IMG/VR virus record: IMGVR_UViG_3300033463_005840
Span: 69,200-133,199 of that record
Length of the DNA: 64,000 nucleotides
Direction: 5' to 3' (one strand)
DNA from: a virus
Taxonomy: Duplodnaviria > Caudoviricetes
In this document: piece after piece, positions 3,790-64,000 of the stretch
Numbering within the stretch: the stretch's first letter is position 1
Layout of the letters: each line of letters opens with the position of its first letter
Notes under the pieces: model-generated
What the model saw: the letters and a program-made list of their open reading frames with translations, nothing else
The model's database searches: none
Told to the model about the DNA's origin: nothing
Translations under genes and position numbers: made by a program

Positions 3790-5133
3790 ATGTTGAATTT
3801 TAAAAAGAGAGTTAGTTTGAATTTGCAAAAAGTTTTTGACATTTCAAAGAATGTCAAAAAAGTTATGTGTGAAGTTAATACCAATGACTATACATTTAAT
3901 GATATAAAGTCGGCGGCGATTGACTTGTTTACAGTTAAGGCTTCCATGGTTAAGAGCACTTATCGGCAAGTTGCTGATAATTATGTTTCGTTTGTTCTTA
4001 TGCCAAATAAGATTTCAAAGCCTTATGATAAGACCAAGTATAAAACAATTTCCTCAGATATAATCTCTGATATTCAGGATAATAGCATTTGGAAAGTCGT
4101 TGATGTGGATGGAGAGAAGAGAATAGTTTTGATTGATGACCAAAACTTCAATAATATCTTTAAAGCGTCAACCAGAATTTCAACTTTCGCTGCAATGTAT
4201 GAGCCGCCGAAAGCAGCAATAAATGATTATGTGTCTTTTTATTCGATTAAAAGCAATGCGTTGGTTTCTGGTATTGTTACAGAAGCTGAAGATGATACTT
4301 CAATTATTATTGACCGTAACTGTAAATATCACCGCATTAAAAATAATGCAATCATTGACGTTGCTGATATGCACAATTCCAGTTTGAATCAATGCTTGTC
4401 AAATCTTACTGAAACTATGGGCGACAATGTTCTTTCTTATTATAAAATGCTTTATGATAATACAGCGTTCTTTGATAAATTAGATGAATTGGTTGGTATT
4501 GACGTTAAGAGTAATAAGGGCGGCGATACTATGACCATTCAATCCGCTTTGTTGGATGAAGATACTATTAATAATATGAAAGATGTTATTAAAGATTATT
4601 TCATTAATAATATTGACAATGAAGAAGATGTTGGTAATACGGAAGGTGATTTTGATATTGACGTTGACCCTATGTTTGAGGGCGATGACGTTTTAGAGTT
4701 TGTTGTTGATGAGAACGATGATTTGGAAACTCTTGAAGATGTACCTTCTGCTGATGTTCTTACACCTGTTGAAACGCCGGTTATCGTTGACAATCCTGCT
4801 ATTACGGATATTGGTGTTGACCATGTTGCGCCTGTTACGGATATTGCGCCTGTTGCACCCGCTATTCCGGCTGTTGAACCTGTTATACCGGAAGCCGACC
4901 CTGCAATGCCATTGATGGTTGATGAAACTATTCCAACTATTGATATGGAAACTCCTGTTGCTCCGACATACAATCCTTCTGATATTATCGTCAATCCCGA
5001 TAATTCGGTGACAAGACAAGAAATTTTGCCTTCGCAAAAAGATAATATAGTTCCCGAAGACGAGCTTTCTGTTGACGATTTGATAGATGAAGTTTTAGAG
5101 GAAGAAAAGAAGGAATTAGGTGACAATGTATAA
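3790..5133 (+). CDS. Putative head/scaffold protein with acidic Pro-rich tail
   Basis: Follows terminase and promoter motif; low-complexity D/E/P/V C-terminus. Confidence 0.4.
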   Translation: MLNFKKRVSLNLQKVFDISKNVKKVMCEVNTNDYTFNDIKSAAIDLFTVKASMVKSTYRQVADNYVSFVLMPNKISKPYDKTKYKTISSDIISDIQDNSIWKVVDVDGEKRIVLIDDQNFNNIFKASTRISTFAAMYEPPKAAINDYVSFYSIKSNALVSGIVTEAEDDTSIIIDRNCKYHRIKNNAIIDVADMHNSSLNQCLSNLTETMGDNVLSYYKMLYDNTAFFDKLDELVGIDVKSNKGGDTMTIQSALLDEDTINNMKDVIKDYFINNIDNEEDVGNTEGDFDIDVDPMFEGDDVLEFVVDENDDLETLEDVPSADVLTPVETPVIVDNPAITDIGVDHVAPVTDIAPVAPAIPAVEPVIPEADPAMPLMVDETIPTIDMETPVAPTYNPSDIIVNPDNSVTRQEILPSQKDNIVPEDELSVDDLIDEVLEEEKKELGDNV

Positions 5134-5356
5134 TAGATTGCGTAATCGCTTAGAGTCTAACTTAAATAGTGCTGATTATATATCTTTGAATATTCCTTTA
5201 CTTATGCGTGTTTTGGAATATGCTCATGAAGATGCTAATGATGATTTAGATTTGCACTTCATTGTTGAAAGGATGATTGATTTATCGGCTAATAAAGAAG
5301 TTTTGACAATGAGCGATTATACTTCTATCGTTGATAAGTTGCACTATCAAAAATAA
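5120..5356 (+). CDS. Hypothetical phage protein
   Basis: ORF; IPLLMRVLEYAHEDA..DLDLH pattern resembles small large-phage proteins. Confidence 0.55.
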   Translation: MTMYNRLRNRLESNLNSADYISLNIPLLMRVLEYAHEDANDDLDLHFIVERMIDLSANKEVLTMSDYTSIVDKLHYQK

Positions 5357-26644: not shown

Positions 26645-26749
26645 TTGCTACTTTTAGTCTCTCCCTGCCAATATTCCCCCTCCCTTTAAAAACTTTGCAT
26701 TGGCAGGGTCGGTTTCAATACTATTGTTAAACAGAGCGAACTGTTTTTT

Positions 26750-26781
26750 AAAATCCCTCTTGCAAAAAAGAGGGATTTTTT
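26750..26781. terminator. Bidirectional intrinsic terminator
   Basis: aaaatccctctt..aagagggatttt. Confidence 0.8.
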
Positions 26782-30687: not shown

Positions 30688-31518
30688 ATGATTCATGTTT
30701 TATTATATGATGTTATGCCGTATGTTTATTCGGCGTATTTCGGAGCTATCTCTTTTTTGAAATTGGAAGAAGTTACGGCTGCGGTCGAGGATAATCTCTT
30801 ACTGGTCTCTAAGCAATTATTGATAAAAAAACTTCAACAGCCGTTTCAGAATTTATCCGGCAACTTTCTTCCGGTCTACTGTTATGATGATTTTCCGAAA
30901 CGCAAGAAAGAACTTTATCCCGAATATAAAGAAAATCGTAAAAAGAAAGATGACTCCAAGAAAATGTCTTTCCGAGTCAGAAACACTCTGCTTTTATCGG
31001 TTAAAAACAGAGATGGATATCATCTAAGTTCTCCTGATGAAGAGGCCGATGATGTTATTGCCACCGCTAAAAAAATGATTGATGAAAAATTGAAAGGTCA
31101 AGATTATAGAATTTATATATTAAGTACGGATAACGACCTCTTGCAATTGACGGATGACCACACAGTTTGCGTTGACATTATGAAAGGGAGCTGGGGGATA
31201 ATTAAAGATAAAACATACCTTGCAGAAAAATATGGACTCAATAATTTCAAAAAAGTCTTGTTACATAAGATATGTTTTGGTGACACTTCGGATAATATCA
31301 AGGGAATTATAAAGCCACACACCAGAAAAGCTCCGATTATCGCAAAGATAAATGAGTGTAATAATCTTAAAGACTTCGTATTGGATAGTGGATTTGTCGC
31401 TAAAGAAAAAATACCGGAAGTCAAGAAACTGATGAATCTTATAATATTAAGAGATAATTTACCGTGTAAAATTACCTGCAATGAAGGAAACACTTATTTT
31501 AAAGGGATTTCACTATGA
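30688..31518 (+). CDS. 5'-3' exonuclease (FEN/T4 RNase H-like)
   Basis: YKENR, EADDVIA, STDNDLLQL, GDTSDNIKG. Confidence 0.9.
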   Translation: MIHVLLYDVMPYVYSAYFGAISFLKLEEVTAAVEDNLLLVSKQLLIKKLQQPFQNLSGNFLPVYCYDDFPKRKKELYPEYKENRKKKDDSKKMSFRVRNTLLLSVKNRDGYHLSSPDEEADDVIATAKKMIDEKLKGQDYRIYILSTDNDLLQLTDDHTVCVDIMKGSWGIIKDKTYLAEKYGLNNFKKVLLHKICFGDTSDNIKGIIKPHTRKAPIIAKINECNNLKDFVLDSGFVAKEKIPEVKKLMNLIILRDNLPCKITCNEGNTYFKGISL

Positions 31519-33407
31519 CCGATTCTTTTAATAACATCGAGATAATTGAGCAGAAGTTTGAGGAGTATACGCTTAATAATATGGATGAAGTTCTTAAACA
31601 CATCGAAAGGTGCGGAAAGAACTGTTATAAATCCGAAAAAAATATAACGGAAACGTCTGCCGAAAAATTTATTGACAATATCTTAAAATCAGGGCATGAG
31701 TCAGTCATTGAACACGCTCATTTCATCTTTAAAATGAAGATTGAAGATGCCGAATTATTGTTCAATAAAATAGGTTATCCGGCATTGTCAGAATTAAGGG
31801 GTTTAAATATCACTCAGTATTCTGATGACCGCCAAACGCATTATTATATAATATCCGGCAATCCCAGAACTTTTCGGGATATATATAGAGTAAGCGGGGT
31901 TTATGTCTTTTTAGATAAGCTGCCTGAAATCTTTTCTAAGTATTTAGGTAAAGATGGTACTTTTAAATTAACAGGCAAAACGGTTGAACCGGAAACATAT
32001 GAATTAGTTGGTATTCAAAAGTCAGACTATGGCGATAAGCATAATTATTATACTTTCAGGTTTGACACCTCGATTTCAACTTATAAAGACATAACCAGAC
32101 ACAGAAATCTTAGTTGGTCAATCGAAAGCACACGTTATTGTGTAGCAGGAGATACTAAATTAAAATTCAGTAATGCACATCATAATTATAATGTGAAGGA
32201 TTTATACAATAAAATCCACGTCAATCCTCCTTCTAATGCTAGTTGGAAAAGGATTAAGATAAGACAGCTGAATGAAAATACTGGAGTTTTAGAGTTTGCT
32301 AAAATAAAAGATGTTCTATACATGGGCAAAAAACCTGTCTTACAGATTAAAACTCGTCTTGGCTATGAATTAAAGTGTACTAAAGAGCATCCTATATACA
32401 GTAAAGACGGCTATATAGAAGCAGGTAACTTAACATTAGGAAATGAGATTTATATAAATGGTAAAGATATAACTGAAAAACCTCTTTATCAAGACAAAGA
32501 CTGGCTATATTATCAAAATATAACTTTAAATAAAACTTTTGCACAAATAGCTAAGGAATTTTCTTTTAATGCGAATACTGTAAAAAAGTGGGGAGCAAAA
32601 TTAGCATTGCCTAAAAAGGGCACAGGTTATTTTAATAAAGGAAGGATTCCATGGAATAAGGACTTACACGAAAAAGATGATAGTCGTGTAAAAATACAAG
32701 CGGACACTTTAAGGGAATTTAGATGGGATAAGTGGCACGATACAGAGAAACTTAAAAAATTAGGCAAGCGTTCTTATAGAAAAATGATTAAAGATACATG
32801 TGAAATATGTTCTTCAAAAGAAGGTTTGCAAGTACATCATATAGATTGTGATAGAGAGCATAACGATAATAATCCTAACAACCTAATAACACTCTGTCCT
32901 AAATGTCACGCTGGAGTACACAGCAAAAATCTAACGATTGCAGTTTTAGACCCAGTTGTTGAAATTAAAGAATTACCTGCTGAAGATGTTTATGATATAG
33001 TTATGGATAGTGAATACCATAATTTTGTCGCTAATGGTGTTATAGTTCATAATTGTAATTACTCTAGGAAAAACGAAAACGGCAAGATTAAGATTGTTGA
33101 TTGCTCTTATTTTATGACTCTGCAAGAACATCAATTATATCTTAACGAGATGGACAAGATGGCCGCTAAGTATAATGTAATGGCAAAAGATTTTGAAAGT
33201 AAGCCAGATGTTCTTAGAATGATTTTGCCGCATGGAACCGCTGCATCTGTGGTTATGAGCGGTAGCGTTTACGATTTGAAAAAAATGTTGGCTTTAAGAA
33301 CTGATATCCATGCTCATCCGACAGTTCAACATGATATGAAAGAGATTGAAAATTTAATTCAAAAAGATTCCAAAGAAATTTTGTTTTTGGATAGAAGAAT
33401 GGTCTGA
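31515..33407 (+). CDS. thyX: Flavin-dependent thymidylate synthase with intein
   Basis: GHESVIEH, RHR..SWSIESTRY|C, R.ILP, LR..HAH. Confidence 0.9.
   Translation: MTDSFNNIEIIEQKFEEYTLNNMDEVLKHIERCGKNCYKSEKNITETSAEKFIDNILKSGHESVIEHAHFIFKMKIEDAELLFNKIGYPALSELRGLNITQYSDDRQTHYYIISGNPRTFRDIYRVSGVYVFLDKLPEIFSKYLGKDGTFKLTGKTVEPETYELVGIQKSDYGDKHNYYTFRFDTSISTYKDITRHRNLSWSIESTRYCVAGDTKLKFSNAHHNYNVKDLYNKIHVNPPSNASWKRIKIRQLNENTGVLEFAKIKDVLYMGKKPVLQIKTRLGYELKCTKEHPIYSKDGYIEAGNLTLGNEIYINGKDITEKPLYQDKDWLYYQNITLNKTFAQIAKEFSFNANTVKKWGAKLALPKKGTGYFNKGRIPWNKDLHEKDDSRVKIQADTLREFRWDKWHDTEKLKKLGKRSYRKMIKDTCEICSSKEGLQVHHIDCDREHNDNNPNNLITLCPKCHAGVHSKNLTIAVLDPVVEIKELPAEDVYDIVMDSEYHNFVANGVIVHNCNYSRKNENGKIKIVDCSYFMTLQEHQLYLNEMDKMAAKYNVMAKDFESKPDVLRMILPHGTAASVVMSGSVYDLKKMLALRTDIHAHPTVQHDMKEIENLIQKDSKEILFLDRRMV
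32139..33053 (+). mobile_element. Intein (305 aa) with HNH endonuclease
   Basis: CVAGDT..TKEHP..VYDI..VHN|C; CEIC..VHHID..NN..NL.TLCPKCH. Confidence 0.92.
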
Positions 33408-34161: not shown

Positions 34162-34179
34162 CTTTTAAAGATTGAAAAG

Positions 34180-34229
34180 AAAAATCCCTCTTGTAAAATG
34201 GAGGGATTTTTTGTTATATATATTTACAG
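34180..34229 (+). terminator. Terminator abutting phage promoter motif
   Basis: aaaatccctc..gagggatttt then TATATATTTACAG. Confidence 0.75.
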
Positions 34230-34299: not shown

Positions 34300-34962
34300 A
34301 TGAAAGGAAAAATTATGACAATAAAAAGAAAACTTATGAGAAAACAGTTAGTTAAAAGTTCTTTAAAAAGGAAACTTCCTTTAAGACATAGAGTTAAAGC
34401 AAGTGTTATTGAAGAATTTAAACTGCTTTTAGCAAATCCGCAAGATAAAAGTAAACAGGCTTGGGTAGAAGATGTTCCTAGCTCTTATATTGCAACCTCT
34501 AAAGAAATTGAACCTTTTTTAAAACAATTTGGTATAGATTATGATGAGATTGAAGACATCTCCTATGATGAAATTACTTTGTCTATTTTAGACGTAGACA
34601 CTAACGGTGCATTTGACGAAGAGGCTCTAAAAGAAGAACTTGTTGGAGATATGACTATTGAGGATATTGAGTCTTATTTTTCGGCATTTACAGACTGTGG
34701 ACATATAGACATTGCAGCTGCACTTTATAACGAGGTTCAAGGACAACATGATTTTAAAGAAGCCCTTGAAGACGCATATAAGTATGAGGTTATGAGTAGT
34801 AAAGGTCCTATTAATTTAGCTCAAGACTATATTGATAGCATAGGGAGTATATCCGAATTAGGCGAAAGAACTCTTAGAACTTATTTTGACTATGAGGCTT
34901 TTGGTAATGACCTTGCTACTGACTATTATGAAACAAGCATAGGCTATTTAAGGGAGATATAA
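34300..34962 (+). CDS. ardA: ArdA-like antirestriction DNA mimic with basic leader
   Basis: Acidic body ending LAQDYID..L.TYFDYEAFGNDL. Confidence 0.7.
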   Translation: MKGKIMTIKRKLMRKQLVKSSLKRKLPLRHRVKASVIEEFKLLLANPQDKSKQAWVEDVPSSYIATSKEIEPFLKQFGIDYDEIEDISYDEITLSILDVDTNGAFDEEALKEELVGDMTIEDIESYFSAFTDCGHIDIAAALYNEVQGQHDFKEALEDAYKYEVMSSKGPINLAQDYIDSIGSISELGERTLRTYFDYEAFGNDLATDYYETSIGYLREI

Positions 34963-34963
34963 A

Positions 34964-35482
34964 ATGAAAACTTTAAAAGAAAGAATTTTAGCAAGAAAAA
35001 GAGAGCAGAATCTTAACCGTTTAACCAGAAAAGCTGCTGTTAAGAGTGCGTTTTTAAATAAACGTAGCATTTTAGCTAAAGATAAAGACCTGCCGTATTA
35101 TTTAGGTATAAAAGACGTTCTTTATATTTATAATGGTCATTGGTCTGACCCGTATGTTTGTTATAAAGACCATTTGTTAGATGAAGTGGAACTTTATGAA
35201 ACGATGCACTCTGACTACGAGGAAGCTATTTCTGAGGGTTATTGGGAAAAAGACAAAAAAATTACGGAAGAAGAGGATATTGATAATTACATTCGTTATA
35301 ATGCGGATTCTGTTAAAGAGGTAATTCTTGAGCACGGCAGAAAAGTTCGTGGCGTTCAAAGAAGATTGGAAGATTTAGGAAGAGAACAGCTGTTAAACAA
35401 TAATATCAAAATCACTCAACATGATATTGATACGGCAGGTGCTTGGACCCCTACCCTTTCAAGAGTTCGTAGGAAATTTTAA
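34964..35482 (+). CDS. Protein with basic leader and acidic core
   Basis: ORF. Confidence 0.6.
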   Translation: MKTLKERILARKREQNLNRLTRKAAVKSAFLNKRSILAKDKDLPYYLGIKDVLYIYNGHWSDPYVCYKDHLLDEVELYETMHSDYEEAISEGYWEKDKKITEEEDIDNYIRYNADSVKEVILEHGRKVRGVQRRLEDLGREQLLNNNIKITQHDIDTAGAWTPTLSRVRRKF

Positions 35483-35485
35483 AAG

Positions 35486-35535
35486 GTGAACGGAAAATAT
35501 CACCACCTTTTAAGGTGGTGATATGAAAGCGAACC
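35486..35535 (-). repeat. Solo IS200/IS605-type palindromic mini-element
   Basis: Perfect atatcaccacctt/aaggtggtgatat stem; minus strand reads ttcgc..ttcac like the ends of the 56268-57744 element. Confidence 0.65.
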
Positions 35536-35556
35536 ATAAGGAAAGGAAGATAAAAA

Positions 35557-35733
35557 ATGAAATTTGAAAAACTTGTTGATGAATTTGCGGATAGATATCT
35601 CGATGATATTTATTTAAAACTACATAGTAACCAGTTTTATGCAGAAGAAGCAAAAATTTCATTTATTGATTGGCTTAAAGATTACGGATATTTAAGTAGA
35701 AAAGATGCAGAGGAATTAAAACGTAAAATTTAA
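35557..35733 (+). CDS. Small hypothetical protein (58 aa, not in ORF track)
   Basis: AAGGAAAGG RBS; MKFEKLVDEFAD..LKRKI. Confidence 0.55.
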   Translation: MKFEKLVDEFADRYLDDIYLKLHSNQFYAEEAKISFIDWLKDYGYLSRKDAEELKRKI

Positions 35734-35782
35734 TTAAGTTAGTGCCGTTCTGACGAAGGGCGGCACTCAGCTCTTTTAGAGG

Positions 35783-35811
35783 TAAATCGAAAAATATTAA
35801 AATTCATAAAA
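35783..35811 (-). repeat. Left inverted repeat of tnpB-like gene
   Basis: 16-bp core 35790-35805 is the reverse complement of 37205-37220. Confidence 0.75.
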
Positions 35812-35850
35812 CATGTTTACTTTTGATTCAATTTAAAATACAATATTATT

Positions 35851-37197
35851 ATGTTAACTTTAAAGATTAAATATTCCGTTCAAGACTGCTTTAAAGATAC
35901 TATCTCTGATTATCAGAGACAGTATAATAATCTATTACACCTCTTTTACAATAGATTAAAGGAGGGTATATCAGAAACAGCTTGCAAACATCTTTCTTTT
36001 AATAATCTTGAACTGATGAACAGCTGGCTTAGGCAATCTTGTGTTAAAGATACTAGTTATCTAATAAAAGATTTTAAGGATGATGCTATTCTCTTTGGAG
36101 GTAAGAAACTCTTTGAAAAAAGATTTAGAAAGAATATATCTAAAGAAGAATTTAAAGAAAAAAGATTAGTCCCTTTTATGTCAGCTGGAGATAGTAAGCG
36201 TAAGGGTAATAGATTATTTAGGTTAGTGGAATCTTTAGACCGAGTTATCTTTCAACCAAAAGCAAATCTTAAAATCTCTTTGACTCTTATAGGCGTAGGT
36301 AAAAACAGGATAAAGATTCTTAAAAAGTTATATCAGCATCAATTAGCTTGTGATTTACCTATAACTTATAAATTAGATAAACAATACATTTATATAACCT
36401 TTGATGAGGTAATCCTTCAAGAGAAATTAGTTAAACCTACCGAAAATAGGATAATGTCTATCGACATGAATCCTAATTATATAGGGTACTCAATTTTAGA
36501 CTGGAAAGATTCTGAAAAATTTGAGGTTGTTAAAACAGGTATCATATCTTTAAAGAATTTGAATGATTATGATAAGTCTTTAAAAGACAAAAAACTTCCC
36601 GCAACAGATTCCGAAAGAATTTATACCTATAACAAGAGAGTATACGAAACTTTAGAATCCTCTAAGTATCTTATCAAACTAGCTGAACATTACAAGTGTG
36701 AATGTTTTGCTATTGAAGACTTAAATATGAAATCTAAAGACTTAGGTTATGGAAGAGTTAATAATAAACTCATTTTAAATAACTGGAACAGGAATAAGTT
36801 AGCATCTAATTTAGAAAAGCGCTGTAATATATTAGGAATCAAATTTTTAAAAGTGATTCCTAACTATTCATCTATTATAGGTAACTTAGTTTATAGAGAT
36901 TTACAGTTACCTGACCCTATTCTAGCATCTATTGAAATTAGTAGAAGGTGCTACGAATTTAATCTTCAATATGTTAAGAAGATTAAAACTAAGACAAAGA
37001 ATATAGTTCTACCAATTCTTGAATCACTAAAAGATAAAGTAAAACACTCATTGGAAGAAGTAAAGTGCTTTATTGATTTTGAAAATTGGCAGCAATTATT
37101 TTCTTTGTTAAAGAAATCTAAACTTAAATATAGATTTCCTTTCAAAGAGAAAGTCTTTCAGACAAAAACTTTAAGATTTGTTAATCAGTTTTACTGA
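35851..37197 (+). CDS. tnpB: TnpB/Cas12f-like RuvC protein lacking the zinc finger
   Basis: RuvC-I SIDMNP, RuvC-II IEDL, RuvC-III PDPILAS; YSSIIGN in place of CxxC; TTTACT-17-TACAAT promoter, leaderless. Confidence 0.8.
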   Translation: MLTLKIKYSVQDCFKDTISDYQRQYNNLLHLFYNRLKEGISETACKHLSFNNLELMNSWLRQSCVKDTSYLIKDFKDDAILFGGKKLFEKRFRKNISKEEFKEKRLVPFMSAGDSKRKGNRLFRLVESLDRVIFQPKANLKISLTLIGVGKNRIKILKKLYQHQLACDLPITYKLDKQYIYITFDEVILQEKLVKPTENRIMSIDMNPNYIGYSILDWKDSEKFEVVKTGIISLKNLNDYDKSLKDKKLPATDSERIYTYNKRVYETLESSKYLIKLAEHYKCECFAIEDLNMKSKDLGYGRVNNKLILNNWNRNKLASNLEKRCNILGIKFLKVIPNYSSIIGNLVYRDLQLPDPILASIEISRRCYEFNLQYVKKIKTKTKNIVLPILESLKDKVKHSLEEVKCFIDFENWQQLFSLLKKSKLKYRFPFKEKVFQTKTLRFVNQFY

Positions 37198-37228
37198 TTT
37201 TAACGAATTTTAATATTTTTGATATTTA
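37198..37228 (+). repeat. Right inverted repeat of tnpB-like gene
   Basis: ttttaacgaattttaatatttttgatattta. Confidence 0.75.
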
Positions 37229-37251
37229 ATATTCGCAGTTATCGGTCAGCC

Positions 37252-37268
37252 ATATATATATATTTATA
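37252..37268 (+). promoter_or_regulatory. Phage promoter motif
   Basis: ATATATATATATTTATA. Confidence 0.65.
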
Positions 37269-37302
37269 GGTTACTGTTTTTAATTTTTTGAAAGGTTTAG
37301 AT

Positions 37303-38205
37303 ATGTTGAGAAATTTTATGGAAAAAAAGAAAGATAAACGTAATAGAGTTTTATCTAATTTAAGATTTAAAAGAAAGCTGTTAGCAAAAGCCAGACAGAT
37401 GGTTTTGTCCGAAGACCAGACTCAGAGAGATAGAATTAACGCTTTGGCGAATTTTCTTGGTCTTTCCGGCAGAGAAAAAAGAAAAATCAAAGTAAGTGAT
37501 TATGATGATTACACTTTTACTTATGGTGATGAAGAGTATATGGTTTTAACCGATTCAGAGGCGGATGATAGAGCTGTCGAAGAAATCCAAAATATTATTG
37601 ATGACACGGGTTTGCAAGCTTTTTCTTCTGAAGCACAAGAATATATCTTAGATAATTTTTGTTCTTGGGACTGGGAAAGCGACTTGCATGATGGTAACAT
37701 GAGTTATGCCTATGATGTCTGGGAAGAGTCAGATGACGAATATGGTAATCATGCGATTCGAGAGTTTTATGAAAGAACTGATGGCACAGATTCTTTTGGA
37801 AAAACAGTAGGTGGTTTTGCATTAGTTCGTAAGGACAATAATATAAAAGACGAAGACCCAATTATCTTTTCTACAAAACAAGAGGCTTTGGATTTTATAA
37901 ATGAGAGAAATCTTAGAATCTCTGATTATAAAGATATCGTTTTTGATGAAAAATTTGTTGACAAAGACTATGTTTGTGAGCAGTTAGCTTATTCTATGGA
38001 TGATGTTTATACGTCAGCATCGGAATATTTGCGTGATTCCGGCGGACTTGACAGTGATTGGTTAATAAACTGCCTAGACGTTGAAGCTATTACTCAATAT
38101 TGTATAGAAAAGGATGGCCGTGGACATAACTTAGCCAGATATGACGGATACGAAAACGAAATAGACTACGAGGGTGAAACTTATTTTATTTATCGGATGA
38201 ATTAA
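37303..38205 (+). CDS. Acidic putative DNA-mimic protein with basic leader
   Basis: EYMVLTDSEAD..DGRGHNLARYDG.E..YFIYR; very D/E-rich. Confidence 0.55.
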   Translation: MLRNFMEKKKDKRNRVLSNLRFKRKLLAKARQMVLSEDQTQRDRINALANFLGLSGREKRKIKVSDYDDYTFTYGDEEYMVLTDSEADDRAVEEIQNIIDDTGLQAFSSEAQEYILDNFCSWDWESDLHDGNMSYAYDVWEESDDEYGNHAIREFYERTDGTDSFGKTVGGFALVRKDNNIKDEDPIIFSTKQEALDFINERNLRISDYKDIVFDEKFVDKDYVCEQLAYSMDDVYTSASEYLRDSGGLDSDWLINCLDVEAITQYCIEKDGRGHNLARYDGYENEIDYEGETYFIYRMN

Positions 38206-38221
38206 TTATCAGGGGTTTTAT

Positions 38222-39334
38222 ATGATTTATGCAGTTATTGGTCAGCCGTTTACGGTAAATGCAGAGATTAAAAACGATGACGGTACTCCGTTTGCCGTTA
38301 ATACTCCCGTTACATATAAAGTGTATGATTTTAATGATACCTTTATTTTACAGGGTAGTGCAATTCAGGATTCTCAATTACCAACGAATTGGCTTGCTCA
38401 TTTCACGCTTCCGGTTACTGCTCCTACCCCGAATGATTTTAGCAACGAACAATATTCGATTGAATTTGAAGCCGTTTATAATAATCTTATTATTAAAAGT
38501 AAGTTATATTTTCAAGTCTTAAATCAAGCAGAACCGGAAGCGCATGATTCTAATATTGTTATCTTAGATAGAAGTCCGGTTATTGATTCTTTAATAACTC
38601 AATTCTCTGTTACCTCTTATAGTGTTAAGATTACCGATGAGTATGACAATATTCTTTATCAATTTACAGAAGATAATCCAACTTCCACTTTAATTAATAA
38701 TGAGTATGTTACTAAGTTTAACAGTGGTAATTTTAATTTAAGCGCCGGTGACGGTATGTTCCCGTATCTTATTATTTATACATATACTATGGCGAATAGT
38801 CAGACAAACACCGAGATTCATCCAGTGTATGTAATGAACTCAGCGATGATGCTTGCCGTTAACGATATGCGTATGTATTTAGATAAAGCGAGAAATTATG
38901 ATATTGACCCGTCTTTGAGATGGACGGATGCGGAGTTATCGCATTTTATTATGAGCGGTTTACAAAGATTTAATGCAGCGAATCCGGCGGTTACAAATTA
39001 TAATATAAATAGCTTTCCTAAGTATTTGTTTTATATGCTTGTTAAAATGGCAGAGGTTGAAGCGCTGAACGCTTTGTATCTTGCTGAAGGAATGAGAGCG
39101 TTTAATTTCACTGGCGCTTCTACTACACTTGAAGTTGACAGGACGCAGTATATTAGCACTAAAATGGACGAAATTAACGGGTGGCTTAATGATAATCTTA
39201 CTAACGCAAAAACGCTGTTAGTAAAGAGAATGTTTGGTGCCGGTGTCAATGGTATTTCACTGACATCAGTGACGAACAGAATCGGATATAATTGGAGAAG
39301 TCCTATGTATATTCGTATGTTAAATTCTTTATAA
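38222..39334 (+). CDS. Virion structural (neck/adaptor-like) protein
   Basis: Beta-rich N-terminus; helical MRMYLDK..WTDAELSHF C-terminus. Confidence 0.45.
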   Translation: MIYAVIGQPFTVNAEIKNDDGTPFAVNTPVTYKVYDFNDTFILQGSAIQDSQLPTNWLAHFTLPVTAPTPNDFSNEQYSIEFEAVYNNLIIKSKLYFQVLNQAEPEAHDSNIVILDRSPVIDSLITQFSVTSYSVKITDEYDNILYQFTEDNPTSTLINNEYVTKFNSGNFNLSAGDGMFPYLIIYTYTMANSQTNTEIHPVYVMNSAMMLAVNDMRMYLDKARNYDIDPSLRWTDAELSHFIMSGLQRFNAANPAVTNYNINSFPKYLFYMLVKMAEVEALNALYLAEGMRAFNFTGASTTLEVDRTQYISTKMDEINGWLNDNLTNAKTLLVKRMFGAGVNGISLTSVTNRIGYNWRSPMYIRMLNSL

Positions 39335-39398
39335 AAGTTGTTTACTTTTGGTTGAGAGTTTATTATAATATGATTATAAATAAAAGGAGTAAAATAAT

Positions 39399-39907
39399 AT
39401 GATTAGAAACAGGTTTTAAGAGATAGGTTATATAACAGACGTAGAATTTTATCTGCTGAAAATAAATACAGACCAGGTGAGTTCGGTTTCTTGTGGACTG
39501 TAATTAAAGGGAAGCCGGATATAGAAGGTACAGATTACGAAGGTAGCATAGACTGCCACGGATATAAACTTACTTCGTTAAGAGGTGCTCCTAGAGAAGT
39601 TAGTGGTAATTTTGATTGTTCCGATAATCAACTCACATCACTCGAAGGCGCTCCTGTAGAAGTTGGTTGGGGTTTTAATTGCGGAGGTAATCAACTTGAT
39701 TCATTAGAAGGAGCTCCTGAGCGAGTAGGTGACTTGTTTGATTGTGGTCATAATCGTTATCTCGCCTCATTAAAGGATGCCCCTGTGTATGTCGGCAGAG
39801 GTTTTTATTGTCGTTATTGCAAAAATCTTTCCAAGGAAAATATTATGCACCTTAGAAGTTATTGTAATATTGACGGTGTAATTAAATCTGATTATGGTGA
39901 GTTTTAA
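39399..39907 (+). pseudogene. LRR-like repeat protein with frameshift near codon 6
   Basis: F.C..NQL.SLEGAP repeats; ATG 39399 (AAGGAG RBS) hits TAA; one extra T would join it to frame LRDRLYNRRRILSA. Confidence 0.6.
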
Positions 39908-39930
39908 TTTAAAAGATAAGGAGTCAAAGA

Positions 39931-40275
39931 ATGATTAAAAGAAATTTTAAAAACAGAGTTACGGCTAGCAATGACTTTTTTATAGAAGGTTCTTCCATAA
40001 GTTATAACGTTAAGTATGTTCAAGATGATAATAAAACAGGAATACTTTCACGATATTTTAGAGTAAAAGAAAGGAATACGATTGAAGGTATTAAAAATCT
40101 TATCAATCGTCTGTATAAAGCCTATGGCATAGAGGTTTTTAAGTTTCTTCCGTATGAACATGGTGAAATTGAGATTGTATTTTCTCAAGATGACCATGTA
40201 ATAGGTTGCATTTATTTAAATGACGGCGTTATTATCGAATCTATGGATATAGGATTATACTTAAAGGAAAAATAA
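39931..40275 (+). CDS. Hypothetical protein with basic leader
   Basis: MIKRNFKNRVTAS. Confidence 0.55.
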   Translation: MIKRNFKNRVTASNDFFIEGSSISYNVKYVQDDNKTGILSRYFRVKERNTIEGIKNLINRLYKAYGIEVFKFLPYEHGEIEIVFSQDDHVIGCIYLNDGVIIESMDIGLYLKEK

Positions 40276-40763: not shown

Positions 40764-40861
40764 TATATATATTTACAAGTAATATGTTATTTTTAATAGA
40801 TTAAGGAAATAGTCTGTTTAAGACTAGCATATGAAAAAAGACTATTATGTATATTTATAAA
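40764..40861 (+). repeat. Promoter-hairpin-promoter cassette, copy 1
   Basis: Similar to 42004-42100. Confidence 0.6.
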
Positions 40862-40876
40862 GGAAAGGAAAAAGTT

Positions 40877-41554
40877 ATGAATGTTGATGTTAAATTTATG
40901 AGCAAGTTGATAGAAGAATTTAAAGATGACTATAGAGTTGAAGATTGTTATCGGGCTCTTCTTGCTTTGGAATTATCTAAAGAATTTGGTATATATTTTC
41001 GTTATGTTGATGGCAAAATTTCATGCGAAGCTTTAGGTTTTGCGAAATATATGAATGAATTTCATAGCTACGAGTCACTGAGACAGACCATTGAGAATAT
41101 GCTCGGTAGTGATTATAACGATGTAAAATTGAAAGATGCTTTCGATTATGATTTTAGTTATTCTGGTAAGGGTTTAAGGTTTGATGAGGATAAATTTGGT
41201 GCTTTTAGATTTGTGGGTAGGTTTTTGTCACCTGATATAACGCCAATTTTTCATGTAATGCTATATGTCTTAGCAGGGGAGGTTCCGGAAGATTTTAGAG
41301 AAGCCAATGCTTTTGAAGATAAGGCTCAGAAATATTCAAAAGACCACCAATACTCTTCAGATTGCCTGTTTGAGAATTATAAACACCTTAATACTGGCAA
41401 CTGGATTGACCTCGGTAAAGTTGTTGATAAATTCTTTGATGGCATTTCCCTTAAAATATTCAAGAACGGAAATGGTTTAATTAAAGGGTTAACTAACGAA
41501 GAGTGGGAAAGAGCTTTATATTTGCAAGATGTTTGCACAAAGAAGCTCCGCTAA
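40877..41554 (+). CDS. Hypothetical protein
   Basis: ORF after AAGGAAAGG. Confidence 0.6.
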   Translation: MNVDVKFMSKLIEEFKDDYRVEDCYRALLALELSKEFGIYFRYVDGKISCEALGFAKYMNEFHSYESLRQTIENMLGSDYNDVKLKDAFDYDFSYSGKGLRFDEDKFGAFRFVGRFLSPDITPIFHVMLYVLAGEVPEDFREANAFEDKAQKYSKDHQYSSDCLFENYKHLNTGNWIDLGKVVDKFFDGISLKIFKNGNGLIKGLTNEEWERALYLQDVCTKKLR

Positions 41555-41561
41555 TTTGAAT

Positions 41562-41614
41562 AAAAATCCCTCCTGCTTAAAACAAGAGGGATTTTTGTTA
41601 TATATATTTATAAG
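41562..41614 (+). terminator. Terminator abutting phage promoter motif
   Basis: aaaaatccctc..gagggattttt then TATATATTTATAAG. Confidence 0.75.
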
Positions 41615-41681
41615 GGAAGGAATTGTTTGTAGACAAACTGCTTTTCAAATTTGAGAAAACTAAAACGAAAGGAAATTATAA

Positions 41682-41894
41682 ATGAGATTTTACGATATGA
41701 AAATTAAAGATTTAAAGGAACTCTTGGAAGATACTTTAAACGCTTTAGAAGATTATGACGACGATGAAACTTTAGTGTTACATTCTAATACTTATAGCAT
41801 AGATAGGAAAGGCCATATCTATATTGGAACACGTGACGGTTTTATTGATATCGAAAATATTCAAGTAGAAGGTTATGACTACGATGAAATTTAA
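41682..41894 (+). CDS. Small acidic hypothetical protein
   Basis: ORF with RBS. Confidence 0.55.
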   Translation: MRFYDMKIKDLKELLEDTLNALEDYDDDETLVLHSNTYSIDRKGHIYIGTRDGFIDIENIQVEGYDYDEI

Positions 41895-42003
41895 CCATCT
41901 TTAAGAAAACTAAGAAAGGATAATTAAATGATTAGGAATAGTCCCTTTTCATAGATTGACGTTAATCAACTGATATTTTTGAAATAATCAAAGAAATTTT
42001 TGT

Positions 42004-42100
42004 TATATATATTTACAAGGGAGATGTTCTTTTTGATAGATTAAAAATAGTCTATTTAAGATTAATCTATGGAAAAGGACTATTCCCTATATATTTATAG
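42004..42100 (+). repeat. Promoter-hairpin-promoter cassette, copy 2
   Basis: Similar to 40764-40861. Confidence 0.6.
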
Positions 42101-42779: not shown

Positions 42780-43044
42780 ATTACTTACTGTTGAAAATCT
42801 CTTTTTATTCACTTTGCTAGTAGCTTTACTTTGCAACCTCCTTTTACTATGGATTAACTTTAGAAACATAAATAAACTAAGGCAAAAGAATAATCTATGT
42901 TTTGGCTTAGGTGAAAGGTGGCTTAAATCTATTCGGAGAATCATGCACTCTTATAGAGTTAATGATAAAAACGTTTTTGAAGTTACGCTCAATGAGGAGT
43001 TTCTTATTGCCGAGGAATACGCAAAAGAGGAAGAGAGAAAATGA
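42772..43044 (+). CDS. Small membrane protein
   Basis: One TM helix. Confidence 0.5.
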   Translation: MDKLLTVENLFLFTLLVALLCNLLLLWINFRNINKLRQKNNLCFGLGERWLKSIRRIMHSYRVNDKNVFEVTLNEEFLIAEEYAKEEERK

Positions 43045-44003
43045 AAGTACCTTGGACTGCCGGCAATTATATATCTGATTTTACTTGCAGAGACTGGATT
43101 CGACCTTACATCGAATTTCCGGTAATTAATGGTTTACACCAAGTTAGAATTAAAGCAGGATGTAAAGCGTATTATCCCGACAGTTTTGATGAAAATAATA
43201 ATCCGAAATTTAGTGTTTATACCTTAGATGTAGATAGAATATCTAATATTTCAGCTAGTGTTAATAACACAACATATTGTATTTATTTATATATTCTAAA
43301 TAGTACGACTTTTGCTTATACAGGTATGATTCAGTGTTGTATGGGAACATCACCGGAATTAACGCCTTCAGCAATAGGGTCAACTACACATATTCGTTAT
43401 TGGAATACATCGACAAACAGAATGCAGTATAGTAATAACGGCGGCACTGATTGGACAGTTGATGATGGTGTTACTTTGCCGATAGCTATAGCAGAATGGA
43501 CGAAAGGCATAGGATTTACTTCTTTTACGCCTTTTGAGTTTTGCGGATGTATGGGAAATGGTGTTTTCACTTTGCCTTTTGAAGCTGACATTGCATCTGG
43601 TTTTGACACTTATGGAAATCCCGTATTATCTCATCAATCTTATACTGCTATACAAAATATTCAACTAACATGGAACGGGACTTATAATAATAAAATTTTT
43701 ATTAGGAAAAGCCAGTCCGGTATACAATTTATTAATAATAACCAGATGAATATTAGCGGAAATAGAAATCTTTACATACAAAGTGCTACACCTACTACAA
43801 CAATTAGCGCTGATTGGTATAACCCTGAGAATAATATTGTTCAATACTATTCTGCAAGTGAGGCAACTTGGACTCAAACATATAATTGGTTTATTGCAGA
43901 ATGTGGCTGGAATGGCACTAATAAAAGATTCACAATGTTTAAGCCATTCACTAATATAGATGGATTAACAGGCTTGCCTAGTTTGGCAAAGTTTTATTTT
44001 TAA
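43041..44003 (+). CDS. Receptor-binding/tail fibre paralog 1
   Basis: MKxPWT start, G.MGNG, WY.P.NN, LAKFYF end; W/T/N/G-rich. Confidence 0.65.
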   Translation: MKVPWTAGNYISDFTCRDWIRPYIEFPVINGLHQVRIKAGCKAYYPDSFDENNNPKFSVYTLDVDRISNISASVNNTTYCIYLYILNSTTFAYTGMIQCCMGTSPELTPSAIGSTTHIRYWNTSTNRMQYSNNGGTDWTVDDGVTLPIAIAEWTKGIGFTSFTPFEFCGCMGNGVFTLPFEADIASGFDTYGNPVLSHQSYTAIQNIQLTWNGTYNNKIFIRKSQSGIQFINNNQMNISGNRNLYIQSATPTTTISADWYNPENNIVQYYSASEATWTQTYNWFIAECGWNGTNKRFTMFKPFTNIDGLTGLPSLAKFYF

Positions 44004-44025
44004 AAAGCAGGGGGAGGGGAATAAC

Positions 44026-44925
44026 ATGAAAAAGCCATATACAAACGGTTGTTTTATTTCAGCTTTCCCTGAGAGAATAAAGGCAACTCTCTATCAAGGT
44101 ATTTTGACTATCAAAGCAGGTTCTAAGTTATATGTTCCAAGTGGCGTAGTTGACGGAGTTAAACAATTTACAGATTATACCGTACCTACTGATACTATTT
44201 GTGATTATTCATTATCTGCCGGCTCAGGCTTTTTGATATCTTATATAAATACAAACACTAATTATTGTGGTGCAATTTGGATTAATAGAACTTGCATTGG
44301 TGATTCACCAGAATTAACTCCTAGCAATCCTAATAATGCTACTATCTTATGGTGGGATACTGCGAATAATCTAATGAAAAGAAGCACAGATAACGGAGCT
44401 ACTTGGGCTAACACAAGTTATGTTCCTGTCTCTTCTCATGCTTTTACTCAAAATTACGGTTTCAGAGATGCCCATTTATTTAATTTTGTGGGTTGCTTAG
44501 GTAATGGCGTATGGATGTGTCCGAATATCACGTTTAATGCTCCGAATGGCTGGGATGCAGATGGGAATCCTGTTATTGCCAGTTATACATCATCGGCTCA
44601 TACTTTTAAAATTGATTCATACTCGTCTAATGTTACAGGTGGACTCATTATGGGTAATGATACCGGAGGAGGCGCTGGAAGTAGTATAGCTAGAATAACA
44701 ACAATGCAGACAACAGAACTTTTTTATCAAGATACTGCCCCTACTACTGTTTCAGGCTTTTGGTACGACACTTTAAATAATAAAAGCTACATAGTTGCCA
44801 ATAGTGCTTGGTTTCAAGATATTGATTTTCCGATTGGAAGATATAGTTGGAATGCCAGTACACAAAGATATACTAGCTTTACATTACAAACTTCACAAGA
44901 GGCGCTCGCTAAATACTACTTTTAA
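44026..44925 (+). CDS. Receptor-binding/tail fibre paralog 2
   Basis: Same motifs as paralog 1. Confidence 0.65.
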   Translation: MKKPYTNGCFISAFPERIKATLYQGILTIKAGSKLYVPSGVVDGVKQFTDYTVPTDTICDYSLSAGSGFLISYINTNTNYCGAIWINRTCIGDSPELTPSNPNNATILWWDTANNLMKRSTDNGATWANTSYVPVSSHAFTQNYGFRDAHLFNFVGCLGNGVWMCPNITFNAPNGWDADGNPVIASYTSSAHTFKIDSYSSNVTGGLIMGNDTGGGAGSSIARITTMQTTELFYQDTAPTTVSGFWYDTLNNKSYIVANSAWFQDIDFPIGRYSWNASTQRYTSFTLQTSQEALAKYYF

Positions 44926-44937
44926 GGAATCAGAGAA

Positions 44938-45825
44938 ATGAAAATACCATGGACAGTTGGGGAATATATTTATTGGTGGGAACCTCGCATTAATTTTACC
45001 TTATCAGGTGGAGTATTAACTTTGAAAAAAGGTAGCAAAGTTTATATTCCAAACGGGTTAGACGAAAACAATAATAAGGTTTTTACTGATTTTACTATAC
45101 CAGAAGATTTTCGTATGGGAGGTAGTTCACAAACTGATAACAATGATAATGTTATTAGAATGTGGAGACCAAATGTAAACACCACATTTTCTGCTGATTA
45201 TCGTTTTGTTTCATTAGGAGCTTCACCTGATTTAACTTATACAGGAGCTCCTACAAGTTCTCGTTTATGGTGGGATACCACTAATAATGTAATTAAAATA
45301 ACTAATGATATGGGTTCTACGTGGACTAACTTTGCTTGTTCTATTCCAATGCACTGGGAGAAAAGAAAAGCTGGTTATGGTATTTATGAGGCTATTCCTT
45401 TTCATTTTGTGGGGTTATTTGGAAATGGTGTTTTTAACCTTCCCTTTAAAGCGTATTGTGGAATGGGTTTTGATGAGAATATGAATCCTGTGAATTGGAA
45501 TAGTGTTGTAGAGCAAATTAACACTCAAACAGCTCCTAGTAGCTGGAGTACAAATGTGGAAAATTGTTATGTGCAACCTAACGCTTCTAGCATCGGATTA
45601 TATTGGAATGCTTTATGGGTTCAAGAGGAAGAGCCAACCGACACAAGAACTTATAATCATTGGTATAATCCGAAAACTAATCTGGCAAAGTATGGTGGTT
45701 ATGGCTCGTGGACACAAGAAGGCAGAAATTTAGTGGCAGTAGTTAGTTGGAATAACACAACAAAGCAATTTTATAATTTCAGGCCGTTTGCTTATTTAGA
45801 CAGCCTTAGTAAATATTATGTCTAA
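44938..45825 (+). CDS. Receptor-binding/tail fibre paralog 3
   Basis: Same motifs as paralog 1. Confidence 0.65.
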   Translation: MKIPWTVGEYIYWWEPRINFTLSGGVLTLKKGSKVYIPNGLDENNNKVFTDFTIPEDFRMGGSSQTDNNDNVIRMWRPNVNTTFSADYRFVSLGASPDLTYTGAPTSSRLWWDTTNNVIKITNDMGSTWTNFACSIPMHWEKRKAGYGIYEAIPFHFVGLFGNGVFNLPFKAYCGMGFDENMNPVNWNSVVEQINTQTAPSSWSTNVENCYVQPNASSIGLYWNALWVQEEEPTDTRTYNHWYNPKTNLAKYGGYGSWTQEGRNLVAVVSWNNTTKQFYNFRPFAYLDSLSKYYV

Positions 45826-45952
45826 AAAGATGCCGGAGAATCTTGCGATTTTCCGGCACCTAAAAATGACAGATATAAAATATTACACGAAGCTTCGGCT
45901 AGTTGAAGCTTAAATAGCAAGTTTAAGATTCCATTCTCAAAACTCACTATCT
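45825..45952 (-). ncRNA. Candidate structured sRNA
   Basis: TTTACT-17-TATTAT promoter (45987-45959), internal hairpins, terminator with U-tract on minus strand, no ORF. Confidence 0.45.
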
Positions 45953-46019
45953 GATTTAATAATACAAAATTTTCTGAAAAAAGTAAATAAAAAATATCAA
46001 ATCGTTTTGCTTTTTTGTT

Positions 46020-46034
46020 TATATATATTTATAG
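46020..46034 (+). promoter_or_regulatory. Phage promoter motif
   Basis: TATATATATTTATAG. Confidence 0.65.
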
Positions 46035-46061
46035 AAACTAATCATTTTGGAGAGTCTTAAA

Positions 46062-46517
46062 ATGACTGATAAAATCAAAACTATTAACAATTTTTCAACA
46101 AATACAGCATACCTTTGTCATCCAGTTACTCCTGGTGAGATATGTAATGTTGATATGATGCAAGACCCAACCTTTCAAAGTAATATACAACAAATGATTG
46201 CTAATTATACTAAGGGGAGTGGTAATGCTTCAGCTAATGGCTGGCTTTACCTTGGCAACAATACTGTTTTAGAATGGTATAATGCGAGTGCTAATACTTC
46301 AGGTGCTACAATAACACTTCCAAAAGCGATGGATGATAAAAACTATTTTGTTTGTCCTGGTTTCAATAATAAAACAGGTACGGGAGCTATTTCAACTTAT
46401 TGTACTGTTATTGTTAAAGACCAGACTACTACGAATTTTAAAGCTTTTGCATATAATGCTAACTGGGTTACGACTTTTCTTATAATCGGCAAATGCACTT
46501 TAACAGATAGAGTATAG
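46062..46517 (+). CDS. Short tail-fibre tip domain protein
   Basis: NGWLYLGNNTVLEW..TITLPKAM..TTTNF..W..IG. Confidence 0.6.
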   Translation: MTDKIKTINNFSTNTAYLCHPVTPGEICNVDMMQDPTFQSNIQQMIANYTKGSGNASANGWLYLGNNTVLEWYNASANTSGATITLPKAMDDKNYFVCPGFNNKTGTGAISTYCTVIVKDQTTTNFKAFAYNANWVTTFLIIGKCTLTDRV

Positions 46518-46529
46518 GGATTTAAAATC

Positions 46530-47108
46530 ATGGCTAAAACAAAAAAGACAACTATTGAATCAGAAACAGTTATTGATAATGCTCCTGTAGAAACAGAAGT
46601 TTCGGAGATTAAAGAGGGTGATATTTTTATTAATGATTATCCTGACGAGGCCTTTCAGTTTTGTTATAATTCAAAAGGTAAATATACAATCGTTGAAATT
46701 AGCAAAGATGAAGATGGACATCGCCGGTTTCAGATTGTTGAAGATAAGATTTCCTTAGACGAGTTAAAAGAGAAAAAAAGAAACGAGCTTAAAATAGCAA
46801 GAGACGAAAACGAGCAGGATTATTTTATCTATGATGGGAATAGATATAATTCAGACCAAGTATCTTGTACTCGCATAACTGATACTGTTTTAATCGCTAA
46901 TGCGGTCGGTGACGGGTTTAAGATAATATGGACAGATTACGATAATGTTGGACATGAATTAAATAAAGACGATATGACCGGATTGCTAATGGCACTAGGT
47001 CAGCATTCACAAGCTTGTCATTATCAATATAACGCTTTAAAAGAACAAATCGCTAATGCTACTACTGAAGATGAAATTAACGCTATTGTCTGGACAAAGA
47101 TTGATTGA
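46530..47108 (+). CDS. DUF4376-like tail fibre assembly protein
   Basis: LDELKEKK..ELK.ARD..WTDYDN..LKEQIANA.T.DEINAI.W. Confidence 0.75.
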   Translation: MAKTKKTTIESETVIDNAPVETEVSEIKEGDIFINDYPDEAFQFCYNSKGKYTIVEISKDEDGHRRFQIVEDKISLDELKEKKRNELKIARDENEQDYFIYDGNRYNSDQVSCTRITDTVLIANAVGDGFKIIWTDYDNVGHELNKDDMTGLLMALGQHSQACHYQYNALKEQIANATTEDEINAIVWTKID

Positions 47109-47144
47109 TACTCTTTAATTTATGTAATATAAAGGAATTAACTT

Positions 47145-48042
47145 TTGAAAATACCTTGGACAGATGGCAATTTTATTAGTGCTTACCCTAACCTGATTAA
47201 GTGTCGGCTTAAAGAGGGTATGCTTACACTGCTTTCAGGCAGTAAGTTTTATATTCCTAATGGACGAGACGCTAATAATAAACCTGTTTTTACAGAATAT
47301 ACAGTAACAACTGATAAAAGATGGGAAGGCACATCTTATACTGGTAGTGATACTGATTTTATTTATTTTTTCGTAAGACCATCAGGTGTTAATGGTGGCT
47401 TTCATACAAAATATTATAGAAATCTCTGTATGGGTTCAACTGCTGATTTAACAGGCATCACAAGTGGTACTTCTGTTTTATGGTGGGACACTACAAATAA
47501 TCTGTTTAAATTAAGTACAGATGTAGGCTCTACTTGGGATGTAACGTATGATTATACTTTACCTGTTGGTGTAGCTTCTTTAAAGCAAAATTACGGAGTT
47601 ACTAATTTTATTCCTTTTAATTTTGTCGGATGTATGGGAACTAATGTTTATCTTATGCCAGACGTAACACTTAATTTTCCGAATGGTGTAAATACAGACG
47701 GCAGTGGAAAGTCTACTGCAACAAATTCTGTTTGGCTTATGACAAATGAAACACAAAGTAACAATGTAACAAATGGTGGTATTTTTACCAACGGAACTTC
47801 TACTTTAGATATATGGTGGAATAGCCAAATCTTTAATCAAGATACTCAGCCTACTTCTACAGATAATTATGTAAAGTGGTACGACACTCTTAATAATGTT
47901 AGACAAATGAAGTCAAACGGAACGTGGGGGGGGGGATGACACAATCGAGATTGCACGTTTTAACTGGAATGGTTCATTTAAAAGATTCACCATGTTCAAG
48001 CCAGAAACTTGCTTAGATGATTTAAGCAGATATTTTATATAG
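47145..48042 (+). CDS. Receptor-binding paralog 4, frameshifted at G10 tract
   Basis: ORF stops at 47939; G9 or G12 at 47926-47935 restores C-terminus IARFNWNGSFKRFTMFKP..LSRYFI. Confidence 0.75.
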
Positions 48043-48052
48043 AGAGATAAAA

Positions 48053-63958: not shown

Positions 63959-64000
63959 GGGCGCGGCGGGGGGGGGGGGGGCGGGGGGTGGGTGGGGGGT

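Follow-up and report, generated by a model that had tools for sequence, protein, structure and literature searches.

Leader-bearing genes of the window

The stretch of DNA analysed here (64,000 nucleotides, positions 69,200 to 133,199 of the IMG/VR virus record IMGVR_UViG_3300033463_005840; hereafter the window) is part of an uncultured jumbo phage of ~32% G+C, whose proteins are recorded on a 213,785-bp contig. Between positions 34,300 and 40,275 lie five genes for unrelated proteins (34300, 34964, 37303, 39399, and 39931, named after their positions), each of which opens with a basic leader ending in [VIL]-x-[AS], in one case only after correction of a frame shift. An earlier, sequence-only reading had described these proteins as a candidate anti-defence payload that is loaded into the capsid by way of a modular tag, and all peptides named in it were found in the translations. 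Sequence comparison shows that the leaders exist, that they are additions to the proteins that carry them, and that they have a short motif in common with capsid proteins. The coordinates of all features are compiled in Table 1.

Table 1 Features of the leader-bearing region and related sites. Positions refer to the window; a slash within a motif marks the proposed cut; charges are net charges
Feature	Position (strand)	Details
ArdA-like protein, basic leader	34300..34401 (+)	residues 1-34, net +14; LVKS/S and RVKA/S
ArdA-like body	34402..34962 (+)	PF07275, net −31
34964 protein, basic leader	34964..35077 (+)	residues 1-38, net +11; RILA/R, AVKS/A, SILA/K
34964 body	35078..35482 (+)	family with conserved W-S-D-P...Y-K core
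37303 protein, basic leader	37303..37410 (+)	RVLS/N, KLLA/K, MVLS/E; ATG 37303 likelier than 37288
37303 body	37411..38205 (+)	very acidic viral family; motifs LTDSEADD and DGRGH..YDG.E.E..YIYRMN
39399 leader-like start	39399..39454 (+)	MIRNRF, then RRRILS/A; interrupted by frame shift at T run 39414-39417
39399 body	39455..39907 (+)	four leucine-rich repeat (LRR)-like repeats
39931 short leader	39931..39966 (+)	residues 1-12 (..NFKNRVTA/SNDF); MIKRNFKNRVTA/S, RVTA/S
39931 body	39967..40275 (+)	102 residues
Possible sixth leader	5120..5158 (+)	residues 1-13 (..NRLRNRLES/N), RLES/N; GTG start; on a 78-residue acidic protein
Promoter-like motif TATATATATTTACA	34215..34228 (+)	exact match; heads unit 1 (34300, 34964, 35557)
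Promoter-like motif TATATATATTTATA	37255..37268 (+)	heads unit 2 (37303, connector, 39399, 39931, HNH)
Other TATATATATTTAYA sites	3710; 40764-42017; 46020	gene after terminase; three small units; tail-fibre cluster
TATATATATTTAYA with one mismatch	55718 (−)	heads baseplate operon
Terminator-like hairpin	34179..34212 (+)	13-pair stem and T run; closes upstream dUTPase unit
Terminator-like hairpin	35741..35767 (+)	ends unit 1, just before the TnpB-like insertion
Head-tail connector gene	38222..39334 (+)	phrog_17327, E-value 1.1e-26; homologues in RSL1, Lu11, and Rhizobium jumbo phages
TnpB-like insertion	35851-37197	between the two leader units
Scaffold-like protein of L019 (95% capsid identity)		N-terminal KVFA/SSDFP; KITS/S 21-27 residues from C-terminus
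Scaffold-like protein of L018 (73% capsid identity), partial copy		VKA/S 21-27 residues from C-terminus
Scaffold-like protein of G001 (56% capsid identity)		N-terminal EILS/STKFP; KVEA/S 21-27 residues from C-terminus

The likelier start of 34300 is ATG 34315, which lies behind AAAGGA and is also the start of the public gene call P0001; the leader is retained with either start choice, both for this ArdA-like gene (ATG 34315) and for the third gene (ATG 37303). The leader proposed for 39399 held in part: a reading with RRRILS/A exists but belongs to the −1 frame (open from 39407) and needs a one-base correction. ATG 39399 has a good AAGGAG site, yet only the six codons of MIRNRF precede a stop, and the body lies wholly in the same −1 frame as RRRILS/A, so that the gene would be intact only if the run of four T at 39414-39417 were a run of five. 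An assembly error, a dead gene, or an on/off state could account for the split. A programmed −1 frameshift at 39414 is improbable, as the register there is, by our own reading, not that of a slippery heptamer. A 447-residue protein encoded after the terminase gene (3790-5133), with the promoter-like motif upstream, a body charge of −55, and no family match, begins with MLNFKKRVSLN, which is leader-like and lacks the strict motif.

The body of 34300 is an ArdA, as the sequence-only reading had proposed: residues 65-217 match positions 23-154 of the 155 positions of the PF07275 profile (35.7 bits against a cut-off of 27, E-value 1.6e-8). The protein also matches phrog_2059 (anti-restriction), its residues 171-206 align with chain residues 114-148 of PDB 2W82, and its net charge of −31 after residue 33 is that of an acidic DNA mimic of the ArdA kind; a word-based search with 34300 returned no close homologue beyond its own record. 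Homology gives an anti-defence assignment to this body alone and leaves the others unproven as payload. For the 34964 body, which had been called mimic-like, nothing was found in support: its net charge is −9, it has no Pfam or PDB fold match, and the fold search gave hits at noise level only. In the 37303 family, 3 of the 12 members match ArdA weakly (best E-value 4.3e-4), and the window protein itself does not match; its comparison with the 34300 protein in hhalign gave a probability of 0.4%. Fold searches with 37303 yielded no PDB match and only noise-level hits, among which ArdA did not occur. Its structural neighbours in the protein atlas (~219 residues) align to residues 42-300, and for both the 37303 and the 34964 bodies the atlas returned only unnamed viral clusters. 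The LRR-like character of the 39399 body rests on four repeats of 21-22 residues with the pattern L-x-S-L-x-[GD]-A-P, but no Pfam match was obtained, and no family match was found for the body of 39931.

Leaders as N-terminal additions

The firmest result, drawn from alignments with homologues, is that the leaders are real and are N-terminal additions in three unrelated protein families (34300, 34964, and 37303), i.e., unrelated proteins carry an N-terminal leader that their homologues lack, which is the arrangement of the T4 type. In 34300, the ArdA domain begins well past the leader end at residue 34 (Pfam match from residue 65), and in the alignment with the solved ArdA (165 residues) the first residue of the latter corresponds to about residue 58. 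None of the 11 retrieved homologues of 37303 has a comparable basic stretch; they start at the leader end or beyond it, with the conserved core just after MVLS/. The leader of 34964 is absent from the 21 homologues recovered in an exhaustive profile search, most of whose alignments run from their own residues 3-13 and from query residues ~40-46. A 97%-identical copy of 34964 on a 1-kb contig differs at 4 of the 38 leader residues against 1 of the 134 body residues (one-sided p = 0.009), and positions P3 and P1 are unchanged in all three motifs. In the structural model of 34964, the leader forms a helix from residue 4 to 36, and the last motif lies in a stretch with a predicted local distance difference test (pLDDT) score below 50 (residues 32-42) ahead of the folded body.

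The idea of a modular tag held in one respect and not in another: the leaders are additions in three families whose homologues lack them, but they are not copies of one module. A single duplicated module was rejected, most leader pairs being no more alike than shuffled sequences. What the leaders have in common is composition, a predicted helix, and the short motif at the end. The leader of 39931 resembles the N-terminus of the scaffold-like protein of the related phage L019 (z 4.8; 0 of 400 shuffles).

Charge and motif statistics

Among 70 open reading frames (ORFs), the highest N-terminal net charges belong to 37288/37303 (+14), 34300 (+14), and 34964 (+11), and these three top outliers lie in two adjacent transcription units ~3 kb apart. 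The turn from a lysine/arginine-rich head to an acidic body, which the sequence-only reading had seen in all three, is pronounced in 37303 (body net −43) and 34300 (−31) but weak in 34964 (−9).

The bare motif [VIL]-x-[AS] is not concentrated at N-termini (0.0317 per position in the first 50 residues vs 0.0262). The longer form [KR]-x-[KR]-[VIL]-x-[AS] is ~4-fold enriched in the first 50 residues (9 in 3500 vs 10 in 16,500), and of the five copies of R-[VIL]-x-[AS]-[NSA] in 20,000 residues, four lie within the first 50, in addition to RRRILSA in the shifted leader of 39399. Composition-preserving shuffles of the N-termini gave a mean of 0.63 occurrences of R-[VIL]-x-[AS]-[NSA] and at least 4 in 17 of 5000 cases; as this pattern was refined after the data had been seen, the p-values are optimistic and indicative only. 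No enrichment of it was found in the related phage G001, which has a similar G+C content.

Promoter-like motif and transcription units

The promoter-like motif TATATATATTTAYA, which had been noted ahead of both leader units, occurs in the window at eight exact sites and four sites with one mismatch (0.54 expected). The exact copies are all intergenic and lie on the coding strand. Besides the leader units, the motif heads the tail-fibre cluster and, with one mismatch, the baseplate operon. The connector gene starts 16 bases after the 37303 gene, within the unit that the latter opens. To judge from such neighbours, the leader units fit the structural or late class, with "late" taken only from the adjacent genes. 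TATATATATTTAYA was not found in the relatives G001 and G005, sigma-70-like promoters did not exceed chance, and a T4-type TATAAATA promoter class was not clearly present.

A recurring cassette, near-identical in its copies, was seen at 34179-34228 and 41560-41612, in which a terminator hairpin (AAAAATCCCTC...GAGGGATTTTT) is followed directly by TATATATATTTAYA; at ~26700-26760 the hairpin occurs alone. The combination of hairpin and motif looks like a portable "stop-and-restart" module.

Capsid, scaffold-like, and protease genes

The capsid gene lies outside the window, and its product P0028 was found on the same 213,785-bp contig with the G001 capsid protein as query. Connector and capsid proteins together place the phage, on homology, in the RSL1/PaBG/Lu11 lineage of jumbo myophages. 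A search of the capsid and scaffold proteins for the leader-end site, which the sequence-only reading had suggested, gave a positive outcome, with [VIL]-x-[AS]/S at conserved positions in the capsid protein of the phage and in the scaffold-like protein of relatives. P0028 carries EVNA/S at residues 21-25 and KILA/S at residues 33-37, and both sites are retained in the relative P0148, which falls into one 90%-identity cluster with it. In an alignment of the capsid proteins of 22 relatives (down to 30% identity), the N-terminal region varies except for N-A, which never changes, and every P3 residue is hydrophobic.

In relatives, a gene for a scaffold-like zinc-ribbon protein lies upstream of the capsid gene. 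This protein has [VI]-x-[AS]/S near both ends in varying surroundings, and the neighbours of the C-terminal site are not conserved (Table 1). Sites that are kept while their context changes are the pattern expected of protease sites. For PaBG and RSL1, no mature capsid N-terminus was found in the literature, nor a protease specificity for the clade, and the one solved structure related to the capsid protein (6WKK, 280 residues) does not include the N-terminal region concerned. The gene of the head maturation protease lies outside the window; the RSL1 ORF132-type protease of G001 has no Pfam family match, and the Pfam S77 and Gp23 models have no match in G001.

Directly 3' of the capsid gene, a small protein is encoded that is conserved in the clade (L019 3459-3983, L018 2605-3009, L020 1813-2313, and G001 47638-48081). 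Its N-terminal part of ~45 residues is basic and, in all copies but that of L018 (three of four), ends in V-[KR]-A/; a very acidic middle and a basic C-terminus follow, a layout as in the leader-bearing proteins of the window.

Other features of the window

The window further encodes a large terminase, helicases, an intein-bearing ThyX, a dUTPase, tail-fibre paralogues, and a baseplate operon. A megablast search of the region against GenBank phages returned no match, an exact 46-mer from the start of the window had no hit in IMG/VR or the JGI metagenomes, and the large unknown ORFs of the window had no match in Pfam. The ThyX ORF (630 residues; 31515-33407) holds an intein-like insert with an HNH motif. 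The terminase (1161 residues; 195-3680) and a helicase (961 residues; 12820-15705) have an extra region, phrog_9666, in common, which may be an inserted element. At 43041-48958, five paralogues of ~300 residues starting with MK[IVK]PWT.G are interleaved with a tail-fibre gene (46530), which looks like an array of receptor-binding paralogues. The final 48 bases (63953-64000) are nearly pure G/C, homopolymer-like, and look like a sequencing artefact of the contig end.

A close homologue of the TnpB-like ORF that separates the two leader units is found in the related phage L005 (7975-9952), immediately upstream of the connector gene; elements of one kind thus lie near the connector in two phages whose connectors are only 43% identical. 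A 201-residue ORF beside the L005 gene appears by eye to be serine recombinase-like.

Interpretation and alternatives

Anti-restriction proteins are needed at the moment of DNA entry, and T4 and P1 pack such proteins into the head. The reading that fits the window best is a head-loading leader in the style of the T4 internal proteins and the P1 Dar proteins that would be cut by the head protease; the case is circumstantial, and its probability is put at roughly 45%. The leader proteins would be made together with the structural genes, and the positively charged helical leader would carry each protein into the assembling prohead, probably by binding an acidic scaffold. Cleavage by the head maturation protease at one or several [VIL]-x-[AS]/x sites would follow, and the mature ArdA-like and other bodies would be freed and ejected with the DNA. 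That the leader might also mask the DNA mimic until injection, as the sequence-only reading had proposed, is speculative. Late timing, loading, cutting, and ejection are all steps that we infer.

Several observations weigh against head loading with cleavage. The model of 37303 shows one helix from residue 2 to 52 that crosses the proposed site, and no exposed linker is favoured there; a basic amphipathic helix would often yield [VIL]-x-[AS] without any cutting, and the bare motif, at about one occurrence per 35 residues, shows no N-terminal enrichment. In most pairs the leaders are no closer in sequence than shuffles, and the capsid targeting sequence of T4 is not basic. Homologues of the head maturation protease (RSL1 ORF132 type) were seen only in RSL1 and G001. 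In L019 (95% capsid identity), the 175 bases ahead of the scaffold-like gene do not contain the promoter-like motif, so that the assignment to a late class is not secured. Neither leaders of this kind nor an ArdA nor the promoter-like motif were seen in the relatives G001 (56% capsid identity) and G005 (68%, 59 kb). As three relatives at greater distance, or fragments of these (G001-G004, G005), show no such leaders, there is no independent replicate outside the phage and its closest kin. Relatives found via the connector (43% identity) do not have the gene neighbourhood in common, are without ArdA, the 37303 family, and the promoter-like motif, and encode no protein that combines a basic head with an acidic body.

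The leader could instead be an uncleaved basic amphipathic helix that neutralises or regulates the acidic body or binds nucleic acid in the cell, without capsid loading and with the motif as a by-product of helix periodicity. In favour of this, the leaders are predicted to be long helices, and that of 37303 extends into the body. The bare motif is common without being enriched, the leaders are alike in composition and not in sequence, and the most acidic bodies carry the strongest leaders. Such an extension leaves unexplained, however, why short leaders on the non-acidic bodies of 39931 and 39399 have the same R-[VI]-x-[AS]-[SNA] ending, why the 39931 leader is like a scaffold-like N-terminus, and why there is co-transcription with the connector gene; homologues moreover work without any extension of this kind. 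This explanation is regarded as unlikely.

The leader might alternatively be a capsid-targeting signal that is retained, as has been reported for P1 DarB (N-terminal 30 residues), with the motif serving as a docking surface. The P1 precedent (PMC9024508) and the continuous helix in the 37303 model agree with retention, and the context evidence for virion association applies to it equally. Processing agrees better with the several motif copies per leader, with the motif near both ends of the scaffold-like protein, and with the invariant site in the N-terminal part of the capsid protein, and a leftover +14 tail would probably blunt DNA mimicry. Retention is considered rather improbable. That the leaders have no common function at all, and reflect A-rich 5' codons at 32% G+C, mis-set starts, and a loose motif, is very improbable: the bare motif is indeed not enriched, the refined motif is post hoc, and one of the five genes is frame-shifted, but between the leader and the ArdA or 34964 core there is no alternative start, the leader starts have good ribosome-binding sites ahead of them, the top three charge outliers fall in two adjacent units ~3 kb apart, and shuffles reach the observed count in only 17 of 5000 cases while G001, at similar G+C, shows no enrichment.

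A more specific and more doubtful form of head loading with cleavage is an electrostatic cargo code in the RSL1/PaBG lineage, in which a degenerate Lys/Arg-rich helix that ends in a herpesvirus-like [VIL]-x-[AS]/S site could be grafted onto any protein and would load this protein onto an acidic scaffold, from which the head protease would release it. Under such a code, ready-made DNA mimics such as ArdA would enter the host alongside the DNA, and this would be the first ArdA delivered by a virion and a loading signal defined by charge, not by sequence. Should head loading with cleavage itself be correct, the principle of packing proteins into the head would extend to a different jumbo-phage lineage, and DNA mimics of the ArdA type would join the injected cargo. 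A simple, charge-based, cleavable tag could then serve to predict injected anti-defence proteins in metagenomic phages or, in laboratory phage systems, to bring foreign proteins into the capsid, and a cut rule would be defined for a head protease family that has been without one so far.

Comparison with known systems

The T4 internal proteins Ip1-3 have only the packaging leader in common (PMC12373910); this leader ends at the cut motif of the head protease, and the proteins are injected with the DNA (PMC12373910, PMC9024508). Ip1-3 and Alt resemble the proteins of the window in that they are unrelated small proteins, some of them anti-restriction, with only an N-terminal leader in common, and the T4 genes are clustered and late. 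The T4 leader is conserved, comprises ~10 residues, ends in [LI]-x-E, and is cut by the prohead protease gp21, whereas the leaders of the window comprise 12-41 residues, are strongly basic and poorly conserved, and end in [VIL]-x-[AS], i.e., they are not T4-like leaders. The phage belongs to the RSL1/PaBG capsid lineage and not to that of T4 and is not a member of the T4 system; its putative cargo includes an ArdA, a Type I restriction inhibitor, while the T4 proteins inhibit GmrSD.

In P1, DarB needs no more than its first 30 residues to be targeted to the capsid (PMC9024508). The Dar proteins are like the proposed system in being anti-restriction proteins that are built into the head by an N-terminal targeting stretch of at most 30 residues (PMC9024508). 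They differ in having no consensus leader, removal of the DarB signal is not reported (PMC9024508), and no Dar homology was seen in the window.

The propeptides of SPN3US are cut at several copies of the motif and chopped into fragments (PMC10052503). SPN3US, phiKZ, and 201phi2-1 are, like the phage studied here, jumbo phages; the putative leaders of the window are comparable to their N-terminal propeptides, which are found on several head and ejection proteins and can hold several copies of the cut motif in one propeptide. Their motif is A-x-E (S/A/G-x-E in phiKZ), most of the propeptides are 111-254 residues long, and the lineage differs from that of the window phage.

Herpesvirus assemblin cuts at sites of the form (V/L/I)-x-A/S, with the cut between A and S, including the C-terminal maturation site of the scaffold. 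The motif proposed for the window has the form of an assemblin site, as have EVNA/S in the capsid protein and the scaffold-like site 21-27 residues from the C-terminus in relatives. Unlike in assemblin sites, Ser would be accepted at P1 in the window motif, and the protease homologue is without a Pfam match.

The ArdA of conjugative elements (Tn916 Orf18, PDB 2W82) is like 34300 in its Pfam domain and acidic body, and a C-terminal block Y-x-D-Y-x-A-F/Y-G-x-D-L is conserved between the two. Canonical ArdA has 165 residues and no leader and is made early after DNA entry, whereas the unit of 34300 carries a putative promoter motif of the structural type.

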